Below are positions 1 through 6,336 of a stretch of 6,336 bases of DNA, in pieces; the first letter of the stretch is position 1, and every line of letters begins with the position of its first letter. Source of the DNA: a virus (lineage: Duplodnaviria; Heunggongvirae; Uroviricota; Caudoviricetes); the IMG/VR virus record IMGVR_UViG_3300029749_000251, positions 1 to 6,336 of that record; one strand, given 5' to 3'. The notes beneath the pieces are model-generated. The model had not been told where the DNA came from, did not search any database, and was given only the letters and a program-made list of their open reading frames with translations. The translations under genes were made by a program, and so were the position numbers.

Positions 1-699
1 ACTTCAGCGGGTAGTCATCAAACTCACCATAACGAGCATCGTTGATGATGTATGCGATCACCACAAATATCACATCTGGACTAGTTCCGTCTTCATGCGC
101 AGGTATCTGTTCACGCCTCCCTTTCTGCAAATCCTAAAGATGAGATTTTGGGGTTTTGGGATATCTTTTTCTCCTCAGTTCTCTATCCATTCTACAAAGC
201 AGTAATGAACCATCACTATGTGAAAGTGAGGCATCCGCTACATTAAGCGCAGAGAAATGATGCAGTGGTGGGCGGACTGGCTTGATGAAAAGGTGGAGTG
301 AACCACCTTAGCTATCGAATGACACAAAGCCTTGTAATCCAGTGCAAAGTCTTGTGTGCCTCAGTTTTGTCTAAGCGTTCTACTGAAACATAGTAAAATC
401 GATAACGGCTGGAGATCATTCAATATCCGCACTATTGACTCCCCTCCAATAAACCGTGTAACGTACACCGTTTATAAGACAACCAAACAATAATAGAGCG
501 AGTGAAATCATCAGTCTCAAATACCATTTATTGACGCAATACTATCCAGTTCTGAACTAAATGACATAATTCGGTAATTAAATTAATGCATCGACATACC
601 TTATAGATACGCCCCAATAATATAATGCTAATCCTCTTTGAATAGAAAACGTTCAATACTCCTCACTAAATAGCATAGTATTTATATCTTCCCTTACAA

Positions 700-891
700 A
701 AAAAATTAAGGCATAATAATAAGCTTCCTTTAACGCTAGATATTGAGGTTTGTATGTATCGCAGCATCGCAGCATTTAACACATTTTGCTTTTCATTGGT
801 ATTTATTTCATTAGCAAATGATATATATTACCAATTAAAACACTCGTCATCTCTCAATACATATATTTCCTATGCATTTTGAGGGATTGCC
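700..891 (+). promoter_or_regulatory. AT-rich upstream/promoter region and RBS of the membrane-protein gene
   Basis: GAGGGA at 881-886 lies 5 nt before the ATG at 892. The preceding DNA is very AT-rich, with A/T tracts and TATA-like hexamers. Short tandem repeats are present (ATCGCAGC x2 at 758-773, TGTA x2 at 751-758). The exact -35/-10 could not be assigned confidently. Confidence 0.4.
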
Positions 892-1971
892 ATGACATAC
901 AATACTATATTCAAAATATACATCTCAATTTTCATTTCTGTTATTGTCACTATAATAGCCATATCCGGTATAACATTCCTGGGGGACAACTGGATTATTC
1001 CAGACACATATCATCTATTTAATACTGCAAAATATGATACCACATTTTCACTCAGCGATATTTATTCCCAGCATAAAACATCTGTTTTATTTCTCTTTAT
1101 AAACAAAGTGCTCTATAGCATAGGGTTATATTCTTTCTGTATCGCGAACACAGCAATGATTATCTATGCTTTTTTCAAACATCACGAAGACCGTAGATTT
1201 TGTTTTGTGTTTTTGGTTTTGTCACCTCTATTTTTCATTAATATACCGTTACCATCCAAAGATATAATGGTGACATTTCTTTTTTGCATATGGGTATATG
1301 CAGTTTACTCTGAGGCAAGCCTGACAAAAACAATCCTGCTGTCTTTAATCATCCTATTAGTTAGAGATGGCTTTGGGATAATTTTAATTGCCACTTCAAT
1401 TATCTTAAAACAAAAGATAATATATAAAGCACCAATACTACTGATTATAATAGCAACTCTCATCGCATCTTTAATATCGGATGTTTTGCCTAACTATGCA
1501 AATGACTTTTTTCTGTTCCAGAGAGTAATTGATATAGCCAATGAATATAATAGTTCAAGTTATATTCTTCGTATATTTGGGAATGTAACAAATTTCTCAT
1601 CACGCAACCCATTGATTACTGATAAGTCCACATTAAACATTACATTTATGTGCTATACAATCACGGGAGTTACTATATTGAGTACATTCCTTCTTTCAAT
1701 TAAAGCAATACGTTCAAATTATAAAAGTGATGTCAGAATATCATTTTGTTATTTTTTAATTACCATTGCTTTTTCTATTTCACCACTTATTCAAGCAAGA
1801 TACATGGCTCCGTTAATTTTAATGCCGACATTTTATAAGTGTATTTCAAAAAAAGATGTCTTTATTTGCTATATGGCAAGCATATTTATCTCAATAATAT
1901 TATCATTATTATATGTATATTTAGGTGTTTACCCTGAAAAAGCACCAGTGGAAAACTTTACAATAAATTAA
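892..1971 (+). CDS. Polytopic inner-membrane protein, probably horizontally acquired surface-polysaccharide modification function (Wzy/EpsG-like polymerase or serotype-converting transferase candidate)
   Basis: 359-aa ORF with a good RBS. The translation is dominated by I/L/F/Y-rich hydrophobic segments consistent with about 9-11 transmembrane helices. Very low GC and AT-rich codon usage are typical of wzy/gtr-type cargo genes. It occupies the position that the serotype-specific gtr gene (yfdI) holds in CPS-53, but is shorter and has no gtrA/gtrB upstream in the window. Function is inferred from composition and topology only. Confidence 0.75.
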   Translation: MTYNTIFKIYISIFISVIVTIIAISGITFLGDNWIIPDTYHLFNTAKYDTTFSLSDIYSQHKTSVLFLFINKVLYSIGLYSFCIANTAMIIYAFFKHHEDRRFCFVFLVLSPLFFINIPLPSKDIMVTFLFCIWVYAVYSEASLTKTILLSLIILLVRDGFGIILIATSIILKQKIIYKAPILLIIIATLIASLISDVLPNYANDFFLFQRVIDIANEYNSSSYILRIFGNVTNFSSRNPLITDKSTLNITFMCYTITGVTILSTFLLSIKAIRSNYKSDVRISFCYFLITIAFSISPLIQARYMAPLILMPTFYKCISKKDVFICYMASIFISIILSLLYVYLGVYPEKAPVENFTIN

Positions 1972-1990
1972 CAAGAGAAAACCACCTATG

Positions 1991-2036
1991 GCACCATCTC
2001 ACAATAATAATATGATAAACATATTAGAGATGGTGC
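1991..2036. repeat. Perfect 10-bp inverted repeat (GCACCATCTC ... GAGATGGTGC) with a 26-nt AT-rich spacer, in the intergenic gap between convergent genes
   Basis: Read directly: 1991-2000 is the reverse complement of 2027-2036. No U-tract follows on either strand, so it is not a classical intrinsic terminator; it may be a protein-binding site or a weak bidirectional stop. Confidence 0.5.
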
Positions 2037-2089
2037 TACTCCGAGCCACCCACAAGCAACACATTGAATTTATTCCAAAATAATTCATC

Positions 2090-2683
2090 TTATACTTCAT
2101 AAAGGGCAGGCCAGATGACATCAGGCGCGGTGCTGGTATCTGTTGCCGCCACCGCGTCAATGTAATCCAGCACAGCGTTAAGCCGGGTGGTTTCTGCCTG
2201 CGTCAGCTTCCGCCCGGCCTGTAATTTCAGCTGAATCAGACTGATGGAAGCCATTGCAGCATCAATCAGCGACTGGCGCTTTACTTCTGCCGCGTCTAGT
2301 GCGGCGCTATGCTGTGCCTCGGTATCCGTCACCCATTTCTCACCATCCCATTTATCGTATGGCGTTAACGGTGAAAGCGTGACATAACCGTCTTTGATGG
2401 CACCGATATAATCCACTGTAACAGCTACGCCATTTTCTGTTGAGTAAACAGTCTCATTGCGATGGTCTTCTTCATGGCTCCATCCCTTACCCGTAAATAC
2501 TGCCACTCTTCCCGGAATGTATTCGCCCGGGTCAATACCAGTGGAACAGGCGGGCATACTTACGCCAGTATTAATATATTCATCAGACCAGCCAGTATAT
2601 TCATACGTAACTGCCTCATAATAAAAACAACGCATATTACCCGGTACTGTAGCCAGCCCATTTTCATCAAAAACAGGTTTCAT
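2090..2683 (-). CDS. Phage tail-fibre assembly protein (Tfa family)
   Basis: 197-aa ORF. The central EDHRNETVY motif and the C-terminal TSTAPDVIWP motif match the conserved pattern of lambdoid Tfa proteins (TfaE/TfaQ/yfdK-like) as I remember them. Its start overlaps the stop of the upstream tail-fibre remnant (TAATG coupling), as in stf-tfa pairs. Confidence 0.88.
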   Translation of the reverse strand: MKPVFDENGLATVPGNMRCFYYEAVTYEYTGWSDEYINTGVSMPACSTGIDPGEYIPGRVAVFTGKGWSHEEDHRNETVYSTENGVAVTVDYIGAIKDGYVTLSPLTPYDKWDGEKWVTDTEAQHSAALDAAEVKRQSLIDAAMASISLIQLKLQAGRKLTQAETTRLNAVLDYIDAVAATDTSTAPDVIWPALYEV

Positions 2684-3009
2684 TATGCAGCCCTCACAAT
2701 ATAATTAAAGGCGATGTTACGTGGACGGTTTTCATTAGCTGTTGGCACGACACGAGAGGCGTCGAATCCAAGGTCATCGGTTTTGCCTATAGCAGTTGTG
2801 TTATTCGCCATTGTCGTTGATCGTGTTCCTGCATCGTAAAAAGCCCCTCTGATTGCATCAAAAGACATGCCGATCCCGCCATCTGCGAATCCCTCAATAT
2901 TTCTTATTGCATCCCCCTGTGAAGATAATAATTGTCGCCCGGCATCCACACCACGTCCGTCATCCCAGCCACGAATAAATTCACCGCGTAAAGTCGCACT
3001 CGAAGAGCA
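2683..3009 (-). pseudogene. 3' remnant of a side tail-fibre (Stf) gene: only the C-terminal ~108 codons, bounded upstream by an in-frame stop
   Basis: The translation ends ...FDASRVVPTANENRPRNIAFNYIVRAA, the conserved C-terminus of lambdoid side tail fibres, and contains LRGEFIRGWDDGRG (tail-collar-like motif) near its 5' end. Reading upstream in the same frame hits a stop at 3010-3012, and the sequence beyond is not fibre-like. No ATG is present; the listed start at 2949 is a GTG. Confidence 0.8.
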
Positions 3010-3191
3010 TCAGCCAACTGTTTCCTGATTTTTTCAGGTAACTCGTCGGCATCGCAGAAACAACAACGCTCGATCATGTTGAAAGCCGATTCGTAGAACT
3101 GTTTTTGCTGAGTGTCGCTGAGACAGGAAAAGAGCGACGTTACGATGATTTTATTAATTGCATTATCAAGTTCTTTTTCATCAAAAGTCAT
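2904..3191 (-). CDS. Small hypothetical protein (95 aa) with a Cys cluster (CCFC); its 3' end reads out of frame through the tail-fibre remnant (chimeric or truncated)
   Basis: ATG at 3189-3191 is preceded by AGGA at appropriate spacing on the minus strand. The N-terminal ~60 aa are encoded by unique DNA (3012-3191), while the last ~30 codons overlap Stf-remnant DNA in another frame, so the native C-terminus is likely lost. I recognise no family. Confidence 0.4.
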   Translation of the reverse strand: MTFDEKELDNAINKIIVTSLFSCLSDTQQKQFYESAFNMIERCCFCDADELPEKIRKQLADALRVRLYAVNLFVAGMTDVVWMPGDNYYLHRGMQ

Positions 3192-3444
3192 TTGATTTTC
3201 CTTTTATGTATACGGGCTTAAAAGGATACCACCGAGCCTGAAGTGGTGAAAAGACAGGCACATAACAGCTAAGTATTTTCAACCAGAGAGAATCCTTAGC
3301 GTTGTGGTGAATGCGGCTCAGCGTACGCGGGTTAAGGTTGAGGCTGACAGTCGACCTTCTGTGGATACCCACCCGCCTGGTGTGCAACCTTCGCCAGGCA
3401 CCGGGAGGCACCCGGCACCACAACTTTATGCTGTGTGTAGTCTT

Positions 3445-3491
3445 GGCGGTACCAGCTTGTACCCTTGCTTCCGGCTGGTACCGTCCTTTTT
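3445..3491 (+). terminator. Terminator-like hairpin: 10-bp perfect stem (CGGTACCAGC / GCTGGTACCG) followed by CC-TTTTT
   Basis: 3447-3456 pairs perfectly with 3474-3483, extendable by G-U/G-C pairs at 3445-3446 with 3484-3485. The loop is 17 nt. A T5 run lies at 3487-3491. Three GTACC copies, two of them full GGTACC palindromes (3448-3453, 3459-3463, 3477-3482), allow mutually exclusive alternative pairings. Confidence 0.35.
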
Positions 3492-3704
3492 GCAAAACAG
3501 AGAAGAGCATCACCGGACGACGGGCTCATAACCCAATCCATCCGGGCGGCTGCCACCGCAGGTGTTCTTCTCTGTTTTGTGGAGAAACTAACCGCCCCTA
3601 CGGGGGCATTTATGGAAATGTAATTGACTCAATAATCGCCGGACGGTGAGGGCTTCCTTTTACCCGAATTCAGCGCGGTGCAGCGCATATACGTGGAGAA
3701 CAAA

Positions 3705-4241
3705 ATGTCATTTATTAAAACTTTTTCCGGGAAGCATTTTTATTATGACAGGATAAATAAAGACGACATCGTTATTAACGATATCGCGGTTTCCCTTTCA
3801 AATATCTGTCGCTTTGCAGGACATCTTTCACACTTCTACAGTGTCGCCCAACATGCGGTGCTTTGCAGCCAGCTGGTGCCGCAGGAATTTGCTTTTGAAG
3901 CGTTAATGCATGATGCAACAGAAGCGTATTGCCAGGACATCCCCGCACCACTGAAACGACTTCTTCCTGACTATAAACGGATGGAAGAAAAAATAGACGC
4001 CGTAATACGTGAGAAATACGGGTTACCTCCTGTTATGAGCACGCCAGTGAAATATGCCGATCTCATTATGCTGGCAACCGAACGCCGCGATCTCGGGCTT
4101 GATGATGGCTCTTTCTGGCCTGTACTGGAAGGTATCCCGGCAACAGAGATGTTCAAAGTGATTCCACAGGCACCGGGCCATGCCTACGGGATGTTTATGG
4201 AACGTTTTAACGAGTTATCGGAGTTACGCAAATGCGCATGA
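3705..4241 (+). CDS. yfdR: HD-domain phosphohydrolase, YfdR-like 5'-deoxynucleotidase (178 aa from the ATG at 3705; the ORF track starts at an upstream GTG at 3678)
   Basis: The HD signature (…H…ALMHDATEAY…) is visible in the translation. GGAG at 3695-3698 lies 6 nt before the ATG at 3705, whereas the GTG at 3678 has no RBS. The length (178 aa) and operon context (followed by 120-aa and 101-aa ORFs, then an Xis-like gene) match my recollection of CPS-53 yfdR-yfdS-yfdT. Identity to K-12 YfdR was not verified by alignment. Confidence 0.8.
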   Translation: MSFIKTFSGKHFYYDRINKDDIVINDIAVSLSNICRFAGHLSHFYSVAQHAVLCSQLVPQEFAFEALMHDATEAYCQDIPAPLKRLLPDYKRMEEKIDAVIREKYGLPPVMSTPVKYADLIMLATERRDLGLDDGSFWPVLEGIPATEMFKVIPQAPGHAYGMFMERFNELSELRKCA

Positions 4242-4594
4242 ATGTTTTCGAAATGGAAGGGTTTCTTCGTGGGAGATGTGTACCGCGAGATCTGAAAGTA
4301 AATGAAACAGATGCTGAATACCTGGCGCGTAAATTCGATGCGCTTGAAGCTAAATGTGCAGCACAGGAAAACAAAGTAATACCAGTGTCAGCTGAACTGC
4401 CACCAGCAAATGAAAGTGTTTTGTTATTCGATGCTAACGGAGAAGGCTGGCTAATTGGCTGGCGTTCTCTCTGGTACACCTGGGAACAAAAAGAAACCGG
4501 AGAATGGCAGTGGACATTTCAGGTCGGGGACCTTGAAAACGTCAATATCACTCACTGGGCAATAATGCCAAAAGCACCGGAGGCTGGAGCATAA
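4232..4594 (+). CDS. yfdS: Small phage-associated protein (120 aa), YfdS-like, possibly DUF551 family
   Basis: Its start overlaps the yfdR-like stop (ATG 4232 versus TGA 4239-4241), with GGAG 8 nt upstream. Length and position match yfdS as recalled. The Trp-rich C-terminal segment (…WRSLWYTWEQKETGEWQW…THWAIMPKAP) is consistent with my memory of DUF551. Confidence 0.7.
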   Translation: MRMNVFEMEGFLRGRCVPRDLKVNETDAEYLARKFDALEAKCAAQENKVIPVSAELPPANESVLLFDANGEGWLIGWRSLWYTWEQKETGEWQWTFQVGDLENVNITHWAIMPKAPEAGA

Positions 4595-4899
4595 TGATCA
4601 CTTTTACCGACAAAGAACTGATTAAAGAAATTAAAGAGCGTATCAGCAGCCTTGACGTGCGAGACGATATTGAGCGCCGTGCTTATGAAATCGCACTCCT
4701 ATCGCTGGAAGTAGAACCAGATGAACGCGAAGCTTATGAATTATTCATGGAAAAGCGTTTCGGTGACTTAGTAGATCGTCGGAGAGCAAAAAACGGCGAT
4801 AACGAATACATGGCATGGGATATGACTCTCGGTTGGATCGTCTGGCAGCAACGAGCTGGTATCCATTTTTCAACAATGTCACAGCAAGAGGTGAAATAA
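4594..4899 (+). CDS. yfdT: Small hypothetical protein (101 aa), YfdT-like
   Basis: TAATG stop/start overlap with the preceding gene, with GGAG 5 nt upstream. The translation is charged and helical-looking. Length and position match yfdT as recalled. Confidence 0.65.
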   Translation: MITFTDKELIKEIKERISSLDVRDDIERRAYEIALLSLEVEPDEREAYELFMEKRFGDLVDRRRAKNGDNEYMAWDMTLGWIVWQQRAGIHFSTMSQQEVK

Positions 4900-4948
4900 T
4901 GGAGCCATACAGCCTCACACTCGATGAGGCCTGTTCATATCTGATAGA

Positions 4949-4972
4949 GCCGCTATATGGCGGTTTATTTTT
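4949..4972 (+). terminator. Candidate intrinsic terminator of the yfdRST-like operon (short GC stem followed by a U-rich tract)
   Basis: GCCGC (4949-4953) pairs with GCGGT (4960-4964) around a 6-nt loop, followed by TTATTTTT (4965-4972), 50 nt downstream of the yfdT-like stop. The stem is short, so this is weak to moderate. Confidence 0.35.
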
Positions 4973-4987
4973 GCCTGGAGAATTAAG

Positions 4988-5179
4988 ATGACCGATACCA
5001 GCCTGATTCCTGAGAAAGAAGTGATGAACAAGCTCGGTGTTTCATCACGTCAGACAATCTGGAACTATACCAAACGGCACGGATTTCCGAAGCCAGTCAG
5101 AACCCACCCCAAATCATACCTTCGTGAAGCTGTTGAGGGGTGGATTCTTAACGGTGGCGTTAATCAGAAATGCTCCTGA
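4988..5179 (+). CDS. AlpA/Xis-family small DNA-binding protein (prophage excisionase / transcriptional regulator)
   Basis: 63-aa ORF with GGAG 7 nt upstream. The translation (…KEVMNKLGVSSRQTIWNYTKRHGFPKPVR…YLREAVEGWI) fits the AlpA/Vis/TorI-type winged-helix pattern (hydrophobic-x-x-hydrophobic, TGLSRSTIY-like, FPKP). It occupies the position of torI/ypdJ in KplE1. Confidence 0.8.
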   Translation: MTDTSLIPEKEVMNKLGVSSRQTIWNYTKRHGFPKPVRTHPKSYLREAVEGWILNGGVNQKCS

Positions 5180-6336
5180 TGTGCCAGAACAATTTATCAG
5201 CGTGAAGCTCATACACTTTGCGCTGAGCCTCTATCCAGTCGTGTTTATTGTATACTGACATTATCCCGCCAAGTTCATGACCGAGCATTCGCTCAGTAAC
5301 ATGAGGCTCGACATTCATCTCGGACAGACGTGTAACAAGCGTTCTTCTGAAATCGTGTGTTCGCCAGTAACCTAGATCCATCCCTCCCCTTATTCTATTT
5401 ACGAATCGGTTGGCTGCAGCGATGCTGATCGGCTTGCTTATGTCTTCTCCAGGGAAAAGAACATCATTATACGTTGTCATGGCCTTTTCGAGGAAAGGCT
5501 TAATTTGTTCGAAGATTGGACGGCGGATAACATTACCCATCTTGCTATGCTCTTTCGGTACGGTCCATACGTTTTCCAGCAGGTCAAATTCTGTCTTTTT
5601 TGCCAGCCTAAGCTCTGAGAGCCTCGCCCCCCACAGCATAAGCATCTGATGAAGTAGCTTATTTGACGTAGACGCACGGCTTCTTTCAATAGCAAGCCAA
5701 ATCTTAGCCAGTTCGTGATACGACAGTACCCGATCCCCTACCTCAGCGCGGGAGCCGAAGTCCCTTGGTTGGATGCTCATAATTGCGCAACTATCTATCA
5801 ACTGACGCCGCATGCACCAACTTATTGCTGATCTTAGTTGACTTAGCACCTGCCTTGCTCGGCGTGGATTATCTCTTTCTTCTTCGGTAAGCAGGTCAAC
5901 CCATTGCTTAACCGTGATAGAAGATGCCGGACGATTAGGAAAGGCGTCATGCATGCGCTTCATAACCGTTGATCGGTAAAGTGCCTGGGTCTTTTCTCTG
6001 AGAGTTGTAGAGACGTAGTTGTCGAACCAGTAGTCGAGACACTGGGCGACCGTCATGGAGTTCTCCACCTTCTCTTCAAAATAAGTGCGTGGATCCGTTC
6101 CTGAGAAATAGAGCTTTCGCAAGTCAGCAGTGATCTGTCTGGCATCCTTCAAAGACAGGGATGGGTATCGACCAAGCCCAAGTCGATTAGGCTTGCCATG
6201 CCAGCGATAGCGGTACTGGAACTGGATGACCCCCTTCGGTGAAATTCGTACGCTGAGGCCATCGGCATCAGCCACTTCTTGTGGGCCCGAATATGGTTTA
6301 CCATAAATAGTACGCAGTTTTGTGTCGCTTATAGCC
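5160..6336 (-). CDS. int: P4-type tyrosine integrase (site-specific recombinase), N-terminus a few codons beyond the window end
   Basis: The N-terminal arm-binding region (…DTKLR…GLSVRISPKGVIQFQYRYRWHGKPNRLGLGRYPSLSLKDARQ) matches the P4/CP4-57 integrase pattern. The C-terminal catalytic residues are visible: R in WGARLSEL, HxxR in THDFRRT, H/W in MLGHELGG, and the Tyr nucleophile in VYNKHDW. The frame stays open from 6275 to 6336 (…AISDTKLRTIYGKPYSGPQEV-ADADG…), so the listed GTG at 6273-6275 is internal and the true start is off-window. Confidence 0.95.
   Translation of the reverse strand, partial: AISDTKLRTIYGKPYSGPQEVADADGLSVRISPKGVIQFQYRYRWHGKPNRLGLGRYPSLSLKDARQITADLRKLYFSGTDPRTYFEEKVENSMTVAQCLDYWFDNYVSTTLREKTQALYRSTVMKRMHDAFPNRPASSITVKQWVDLLTEEERDNPRRARQVLSQLRSAISWCMRRQLIDSCAIMSIQPRDFGSRAEVGDRVLSYHELAKIWLAIERSRASTSNKLLHQMLMLWGARLSELRLAKKTEFDLLENVWTVPKEHSKMGNVIRRPIFEQIKPFLEKAMTTYNDVLFPGEDISKPISIAAANRFVNRIRGGMDLGYWRTHDFRRTLVTRLSEMNVEPHVTERMLGHELGGIMSVYNKHDWIEAQRKVYELHADKLFWHIRSISD

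Follow-up and report, generated by a model that had tools for sequence, protein, structure and literature searches.

Lysogens whose O antigen is converted by an alternative polymerase are known. The temperate phages D3 of Pseudomonas (Wzy-beta) and epsilon15 of Salmonella supply a second polymerase that overrides that of the host, changing the linkage between repeat units from alpha to beta and leaving the repeat unit itself unchanged (PMC4815439), and both inhibit the host Wzy by a small peptide (Iap in D3). The GtrC proteins of P22, SfV, and the CPS-53 prophage (yfdI) are polytopic enzymes of the glycosyltransferase (GT) type GT-C, encoded by AT-rich DNA, that act on the O antigen in the periplasm and need GtrA and GtrB to add one glucose from undecaprenyl phosphate glucose (Und-P-Glc; PMC7685785). 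Polymerase genes away from the O-antigen (rfb) or capsule cluster have also been described, such as wzy (rfc) of Salmonella enterica group B1, which lies outside rfb, and the prophage-borne Wzy of Acinetobacter baumannii K127, which is needed to explain the actual polymer (PMC12004945; PMC9241936). Here, we analyze a 6,336-nucleotide stretch of DNA, positions 1 to 6,336 of the IMG/VR virus record IMGVR_UViG_3300029749_000251 (the window), with an AT-rich open reading frame (ORF) for a 359-amino-acid (aa) membrane protein at positions 892 to 1971. We propose, with moderate confidence, that this gene encodes an inverting repeat-unit polymerase that was delivered by a phage and has probably replaced the rfb Wzy in most sequenced Escherichia coli O86 strains. 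The proposal resembles D3 and epsilon15 in its overriding second polymerase and in the change of linkage within an unchanged repeat unit, but here the family is undescribed and the native gene is lost by mutation rather than inhibited, with a 42-aa ORF upstream as a speculative inhibitor candidate. The rfc and K127 genes are likened to ours by location alone. With GtrC, the gene shares the GT-C-type polytopic product, the AT-rich DNA, the phage slot, and a predicted periplasmic action, but neither it nor its homologues have GtrA or GtrB neighbours. The features on which the argument turns are the following.

892 to 1971, plus strand (ATG 892, TAA 1971): coding sequence, 359 aa, predicted multi-pass inner-membrane GT-C-fold glycosyltransferase, proposed alternative (inverting) O-unit polymerase of E. 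coli O86.
881 to 884, plus strand: GAGG Shine-Dalgarno sequence of this ORF, overlapping the TGA (880-882) of a small upstream ORF; read from the sequence.
471 to 2100, no strand: low-GC cassette, 30.7% GC (guanine plus cytosine) against 47.5% outside, from a two-state maximum-likelihood composition scan.

An earlier, sequence-only reading of the window had described a multi-pass membrane-protein gene of this length and position in DNA far more AT-rich than the rest, and both descriptions hold. The product has about 10-11 hydrophobic spans (Kyte-Doolittle), isoleucine, leucine, phenylalanine, serine, and threonine together account for 54% of its residues, and its AlphaFold2 model is helical almost throughout; the ORF has a GC content of 30.1%, against 47.8% for window positions 2090-6336. 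Compared with a copy on a viral contig that is 97% identical in protein sequence, the ORF shows 19 synonymous and 10 non-synonymous codon differences, so on this comparison it is under purifying selection. RefSeq/PGAP calls just 1156-1971 (WP_139499480.1, 271 aa, 'hypothetical protein'), a start 88 codons late that drops the first transmembrane helix (TM1), the first periplasmic loop, and the residues D38 and N86. Because these two residues are invariant in the family, the annotated start is, judged from the alignment, too short.

To place the gene among its hosts, we searched 5,426 complete E. coli genomes with the cassette core (query 500-2050) and found it in 74, in every one as a chromosomal, single-copy sequence at least 99% identical at the DNA level with the ORF intact. 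All 74 carriers have the O86 rfb cluster, and a combined query returned 80 genomes with the O86 wzy (80 records, 154 places). The state of a G tract in the rfb wzy sorts the genomes as follows.

Res13-Lact-PEB01-20, 88COLEC, JE86-ST05, and 1368KP: G11, rfb wzy intact (466 aa), island absent.
JE86-ST02: G10, rfb wzy frameshifted, island absent.
Carriers examined: G9, rfb wzy with a frameshift plus F377L and L443stop (TGA), island present.

Thus, wzy is intact in four out of six island-free O86 genomes (the fifth being the G10 strain), whereas the carriers combine an O86 cluster of the Wzx/Wzy type (74 out of 74) with a wzy that is broken wherever it was examined, which would leave the O unit with no other functional polymerase. 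The broken carrier allele recurs at 100% identity in at least 50 listed genomes, and the other rfb genes of carriers are annotated as intact. Because the three lesions are confined to wzy, the sequences indicate that the rfb wzy has been dispensable for some time and that the O unit is still made. The G tract itself (L003 25095-25125, about nucleotides 508-519 of the gene; also in L004-L008) is homopolymeric and a slippage-prone site.

The same association could have arisen without any role of the gene in O86. The protein might be a polymerase or other GT-C enzyme for another glycan (another O unit, or a capsule or exopolysaccharide of an earlier phage host) that is idle in O86, with the link to the dead wzy reflecting clonal hitch-hiking of an island 20 kb from rfb. 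In the region of the locus, the carriers are near-identical over more than 40 kb, the cassette has a foreign composition (30.7% GC) and a nearest non-E. coli relative just 60% identical, and Wzy enzymes are usually specific to their own unit (PMC12004945), all of which fit this explanation. However, the ORF has stayed intact at 99% DNA identity or more in 74 out of 74 carriers while the adjoining prophage genes are fragments, and it appears to be under purifying selection; moreover, a wzy with three lesions among otherwise intact rfb genes argues that the O unit is made and used, and four out of six homologues lie in contexts with GT11 fucosyltransferases, the O86 unit bearing alpha-1,2-fucose. 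We therefore consider an idle enzyme unlikely.

Homologues of the protein are few and distant, and we examined the neighbourhoods of six that could be placed on contigs.

P0015 (L014): gmd fragment, homologue, Wzx, DUF268 methyltransferase, GT11 fucosyltransferase, GT2, GT4, epimerase, initiating transferase.
P0013: Wza, Wzz-like protein, one other polytopic protein, DUF268, homologue, methyltransferase, GT11, GT2, AsnB, GT4.
P0048: Wzz, methyltransferases, DUF268, homologue, GT11, GT2, AsnB, GT4, epimerase, initiating transferase.
P0010: GT10, GT2, homologue, GT4, initiating transferase.
P0006: homologue, then GT11, GT2.
P0004: homologue, then GT4.

In the clusters that could be examined, the strongly polytopic proteins are the initiating transferase, one flippase or flippase candidate, and the homologue, with no others; in L014, a Wzx recognized by Pfam and the homologue are the sole strongly multi-pass proteins among the genes checked. 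The homologues are thus the polytopic proteins left over in the Wzx/Wzy-type polysaccharide clusters of L014, L011, L013, and the P0048 contig, while the window gene itself lies on a prophage. By the elimination commonly used to name wzy genes, these neighbourhoods suggest that the family fills the polymerase role. A GT11 fucosyltransferase stands beside the homologue in four of the six contexts, a recurrent pairing that would fit a fucose-bearing acceptor. As a separate observation, an alpha-1,2-fucosyltransferase of GT11 is next to the homologue in L010, L011, L014, and the P0048 contig, accompanied in three of these four by a DUF268 methyltransferase, which hints at a conserved fucose-containing, possibly methylated type of repeat unit.

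These neighbourhoods also bear on what is the main rival of a polymerase, a GtrC/ArnT-like periplasmic glycosyltransferase that transfers a single sugar from undecaprenyl phosphate as a side branch onto the O antigen, the core, or another glycan and so converts the serotype. Such an enzyme would suit the prophage slot, which P22-like phages use for gtr genes, and a weak match of one family member to GT87 (E 1.6e-4) points the same way. The sequence-only reading had seen no gtrA or gtrB in the window, which we confirm, and no genes of these types occur in the island or in the neighbourhoods of the homologues, the places that this search covered. The GT2 enzymes adjoining the homologues have no transmembrane helices, bar one weak peak in L014, and, lacking a membrane anchor, are not GtrB- or ArnC-like. 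In addition, the homologues take the place of the polymerase in their clusters, the same five-sugar unit without an extra branch underlies both of the published O86 structures (PMC7685785; Yi et al. 2006), and a single-sugar transferase would leave the dead rfb wzy in every carrier examined unexplained. We consider this rival improbable, about on a par with an idle enzyme.

By sequence, the family is nearly invisible. The protein had no match to any Pfam, NCBIfam, PHROGs, or PADLOC model, Pfam and NCBIfam searches with 48 relatives gave stray weak matches only, a PDB sequence search with the family profile and a tblastn search of a phage collection found no match, and a fold search of BFVD returned nothing significant. 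A word-indexed protein search found the protein itself and one that is 60% identical, and yielded two to three proteins even with a profile. When 1.84 billion representatives were scanned exhaustively with HMMER, 69 proteins scored at E<=1e-3, most of them 360-400 aa long. In the alignment of 48 relatives, D38, N86, P121, R158, D159, R238, G259, R303, and Y304 are invariant, and the family motifs are PD(G), LPSKD, RDG, GNxTNLAFR, and SxxPxxQPRY. The profile searches that the sequence-only reading had proposed (Wzy_C, EpsG, Acyl_transf_3) were run and gave no matches, so that fold and context alone were informative.

The AlphaFold2 model is of high confidence (predicted local distance difference test, pLDDT, of 92.7) and has the GT-C(A) glycosyltransferase fold, similar to solved GT-C(A) enzymes. 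The acidic residue expected of GT-C(A) enzymes is present as D38, invariant in the 48 sequences and placed between TM1 and the first loop helix, in a loop that the positive-inside rule predicts to be periplasmic. All GT-C(A) families in the table of PMC10920833 are inverting; clan GT-C3 (GT122-124) groups polymerases of the inverting kind that have a 'completely different' architecture and a long loop near the N-terminus (Meitil et al., PMC10920833). Between the families of this clan, two arginines, one aspartate, and one histidine are conserved and align (PMC10920833). In the supplement to that study, the Wzy proteins of E. coli O152 and O173 fall into GT122, and those of O86, O90, and O127 are unclassified (PMC10920833). 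As a control for the fold search, we used the rfb Wzy of E. coli SE11, an EpsG/GT122 O-antigen polymerase (Pfam EpsG, E 7e-45; PGAP 'O173 family', which is CAZy GT122). This control returned essentially the same PDB matches as the 359-aa protein, and the AlphaFold2 models of the two proteins share the same helix boundaries (144-157 and 159-172); judged by these match lists and boundaries, the 359-aa protein has the GT122-124 architecture with its long N-terminal loop. An alignment of the family with EpsG by hhalign is weak (E 6.6e-4, probability 27%) and pairs D38 with the invariant EpsG aspartate and K123 with the invariant EpsG arginine. On these models, the fold is that of a recognized class of inverting O-antigen polymerases, while by sequence the protein is not a member of EpsG.

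The control also bears on an objection to a Wzy. The best-known relatives of Wzy belong to another GT-C subclass. We found no Wzy_C or O-ag_pol_Wzy domain and no WaaL- or RodA-like fold in the 359-aa protein, and a fold unlike WaaL might be taken to speak against a Wzy; this argument is rejected, because a genuine EpsG/GT122 Wzy gives essentially the same GT-C(A) matches, and the fold is therefore no objection. D3 Wzy-beta was considered as a relative and rejected, since it has a Wzy_C (O-antigen-ligase-type) domain with essential arginine and histidine residues in C-terminal loops, unlike the protein described here, and belongs to the other GT-C subclass. The EpsG-type polymerases (PF14897; GT122, clan GT-C3), with the SE11 rfb Wzy as their example, differ from our family in carrying the motifs RYGIGTDY, RQ, and FH in place of PD, LPSKD, RDG, GNxTNLAFR, and QPRY, and in having an invariant histidine at a helix break where our family has R158-D159; the SE11 gene lies in rfb, whereas the copy here is on a prophage. 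Among the enzyme classes that the sequence-only reading had listed, an acyltransferase (Oac/OafA) is ruled out, with no Acyl_transf_3 domain and a GT-C fold; a polymerase is favoured by the homologue contexts and the dead rfb wzy, and a GtrC-type enzyme is disfavoured by the missing GtrA and GtrB.

Several observations weigh against a polymerase that serves O86. The family has no invariant histidine at all, its R158-D159 standing in the histidine position of EpsG, and the EpsG hidden Markov model matched neither the protein nor any of the 48 relatives at E<=1; NCBIfam models of O-antigen polymerases likewise found no match in the family. Fold alone cannot discriminate a polymerase, as GtrC and ArnT, which transfer lipid-phosphate-linked monosaccharides, have the same fold, and the GT-C(A) fold is also common to PimE, ALG enzymes, and protein mannosyltransferases (PMTs), again with lipid-phosphate-monosaccharide donors (table in PMC10920833). 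The functional assignment draws on this predicted fold, on the neighbours of homologues with 17-39% identity, and on co-occurrence. As for co-occurrence, just 16 of 41,028 bases across the region distinguish strains BE2-5 and NMBU_W05E18, the 74 carriers could represent a single clone or a few, and the association of the island with a dead wzy may stem from a single or very few events; because they lie only about 20 kb apart, the island and rfb could travel together in recombination. The carriers, which we infer to be smooth, could instead be semi-rough. Finally, promoter-like and terminator-like sites in the window are no commoner than in shuffled sequence, and no convincing promoter was found.

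A phage-delivered polymerase would nonetheless answer a specific question in the O86 literature. The Wzy of O86:B7 makes an alpha-GalNAc linkage (PMC4815439), whereas the reference O86 structure has a beta-1,4 linkage as in O90 (PMC7685785), and the two O86 polysaccharides are, according to Yi et al. 2006, the same repeat unit joined differently. In the literature searched, no paper names a second O86 wzy or any extra-cluster wzy in E. coli, and a 2019 review of E. coli O antigens only hypothesizes a second wzy, for O118/O151 (PMC7685785). The gene at 892-1971 may be the 'second wzy' that has been postulated for O86:H2. Guo and colleagues reportedly observed in 2005 that deletion of the rfb wzy abolishes polymerization in O86:B7 and has no effect in O86:H2, and are said to have proposed another wzy outside the O86:H2 cluster.

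We propose the following mechanism. A temperate phage integrating at the 5' end of sbcB would have brought the gene as AT-rich cargo and left a 6.65-kb remnant. The rfb cluster would assemble the five-sugar O86 unit on undecaprenyl diphosphate (Und-PP), and Wzx would flip it to the periplasmic face, where the enzyme would pass the lengthening chain, still linked to Und-PP, to a new unit and invert the configuration of the reducing-end GalNAc. In this reaction, the invariant D38 in the first periplasmic loop might act as base, and the invariant arginines R158, R238, and R303 might hold the diphosphate. Since inversion of an alpha-linked Und-PP-GalNAc donor would give a beta linkage, the expected product is probably the beta-GalNAc-(1->4)-Fuc of the reference O86, where the rfb Wzy gives the alpha linkage of O86:B7, alpha-GalNAc-(1->2)-Gal. 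Once the phage enzyme had taken over, the rfb wzy would have become dispensable and then decayed. What the enzyme uses as donor and acceptor, which linkage it forms, what D38 and the arginines do, and that the motifs face the periplasm are all predictions.

The prophage setting of the gene supports its description as cargo. Many E. coli chromosomes contain the window at 100% identity, and it corresponds almost exactly to a 6.65-kb prophage remnant between dacD and sbcB, about 20 kb from the rfb cluster and beyond the his operon. Comparison with the empty site in JE86-ST02 gave the bounds of the island, on each side of which lies a direct repeat, about 30 bp long, that derives from the sbcB 5' end (window -117 to -88 and 6536 to 6565; L001 11883-11912 and 18536-18565). 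The remnant holds an integrase, an AlpA-like regulator, yfdR- and yfdT-like genes, a tail-fibre fragment, and a tail-fibre assembly gene; it is a remnant because the tail fibre gene is reduced to a C-terminal fragment. The AT-rich gene lies at the end distal to the integrase, between the tail-fibre genes and the attachment site. The neighbouring features are these.

2090 to 2683, minus strand: tail fibre assembly protein, a backbone gene marking the cargo slot (Pfam Caudo_TAP, E 3.7e-25; PGAP).
2683 to 2991, minus strand: C-terminal fragment of a tail fibre gene, a pseudogene (PGAP 'phage tail protein, incomplete').
5160 to 6336, minus strand: tyrosine integrase at the sbcB-proximal island end, extending 2 bases beyond the window (Pfam Phage_integrase and Arm-DNA-bind_3; PGAP).
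1 to 440, no strand: generic prophage-end DNA near attL, not specific to the cassette (matches in 1,897 E. coli genomes).
1991 to 2036, no strand: inverted repeat with 10-bp arms and a 26-nucleotide spacer, lying between the polymerase gene and the convergent tail-fibre assembly gene, where transcripts may end (repeat search), not picked up by the terminator scan.

Strain LR-25 has a P22-like prophage at the same dacD/sbcB site, with the same left-end DNA and other cargo beside its tailspike, and a 45.8-kb IMG/VR contig (L019) carries the 97%-identical gene copy beside tail-fibre, baseplate, and tape-measure genes. Because of the layout of the remnant, the LR-25 prophage, and this contig, we regard the gene, on genomic context, as phage cargo in a slot where temperate phages carry O-antigen conversion genes, in line with the horizontally acquired surface-polysaccharide cargo that the sequence-only reading had suggested. 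A gene of this kind could also encode a membrane protein outside glycan biology, such as a superinfection-exclusion or abortive-infection factor or a transporter, since exclusion genes, too, are found as prophage cargo next to tail-fibre genes, and the gene has no family annotation; we regard this as very improbable, more so than the other alternatives. As separate observations on the slot and its surroundings, the LR-25 cargo (L015 5508-8981) includes a 458-aa protein with a Tat signal beside the tailspike, so slot contents vary, and in two genomes (NZ_CM135148.1 and NZ_CM135147.1) the island is interrupted by the IS21-like element ISEc62 (istA/istB). The 60%-identical homologue, on a Logan metagenome contig, is preceded by the remains of an Acyl_transf_3 (OafA-like) gene, cut down to an N-terminal fragment (L002 133-411), and by an AT-rich spacer, which suggests that this cassette was inserted in or beside another O-antigen modification gene. 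A divergent second variant in E. coli (for example in O90) was not found, a distant blastn search with L002 giving, at gene level in E. coli, a match to this gene only, at about 66% identity. Elsewhere in the window, positions 3200-3650 have about 56-58% GC with ORFs overlapping on both strands (a frameshifted hypothetical gene in PGAP), a 95-aa ORF at 2904-3191 on the minus strand overlaps the tail-fibre fragment and weakly matches HD_assoc (E 0.018), and 3678-4241 on the plus strand encodes a YfdR-like HD-domain 5'-deoxynucleotidase (the PGAP name) whose match to Pfam YfdR-like is weak (E 2.7e-5, under the curated cut-off).

The DNA upstream of the gene may hint at an earlier mode of regulation, and two features there matter.

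758 to 773, no strand: (ATCGCAGC)x2, a two-unit stump of an octanucleotide tandem array; read from the sequence.
754 to 882, plus strand: small ORF of 42 aa with a hydrophobic C-terminal half and its own GAGG at 745-748, a candidate gene (ORF list).

The sequence-only reading had assigned the gene an AT-rich leader of about 770 bp; the leader is shorter, about 420-450 bp (441-891, 32% GC), since positions 1 to about 440 are the generic prophage end, which also matches the left end of the P22-like prophage at the same site (120-440 has 42% GC). Its tandem repeat and its single GATC (at 414 within 120-891) were correctly read, the only other GATC in the first 2100 bases being at 56. Its further statement that phase variation (there of the Dam/OxyR type) is not evident calls for a qualification. 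Direct reading of three E. coli carriers gave two copies of the repeat in each, nearly all others show a constant match length, and copy number is unvaried among the E. coli genomes checked; an additional 8 bp in strain JCH8249 was considered as an extra repeat unit and rejected, as this strain still has two copies. On the other hand, the repeat is the stump of a much longer array, as L019 has 31.8 perfect copies of the ATCGCAGC unit at the homologous place (6748-7001), ending 117 nucleotides upstream of the start codon. The small ORF reads in frame through the repeat in both the window and L019, its L019 counterpart being 122 aa rather than 42 aa (240 nucleotides of difference) with the same frame and the same hydrophobic C-terminus, its TGA overlaps the Shine-Dalgarno sequence of the polymerase gene, and it has no family match in library searches. 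The small ORF and the repeat stump may be left over from a slipped-strand switch that involved translational coupling, a lead rather than a finding. It is improbable, in our estimate, that the most complete version of the proposal holds in full, namely a new inverting GT-C(A)/EpsG-like polymerase family that is the missing O86 'second wzy', acts via beta-GalNAc-(1->4)-Fuc, and was phase-variable in its source phage through the octanucleotide repeat and a translationally coupled upstream ORF.

E. coli O86 is a classic model for blood-group-B mimicry and for Wzy biochemistry, and the gene described here may answer a question about it that has been open since 2005. Even if it should not be a polymerase, its product remains a GT-C enzyme with a faulty annotation, the RefSeq start being 88 codons short. 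Should the polymerase reading be right, two chemically different antigens would be labelled 'O86' when O types are assigned in silico from rfb wzx/wzy, and the prophage-determined form would be that of 74 out of 80 sequenced O86 isolates, among them one labelled ST38. The inverting GT-C polymerases would gain a family that Pfam and NCBIfam lack, and the near-identical O90 and O127 clusters with different inter-unit linkages might be explained similarly. The ORF at 892-1971 thus provides a concrete, directly testable candidate for the second O86 polymerase gene.

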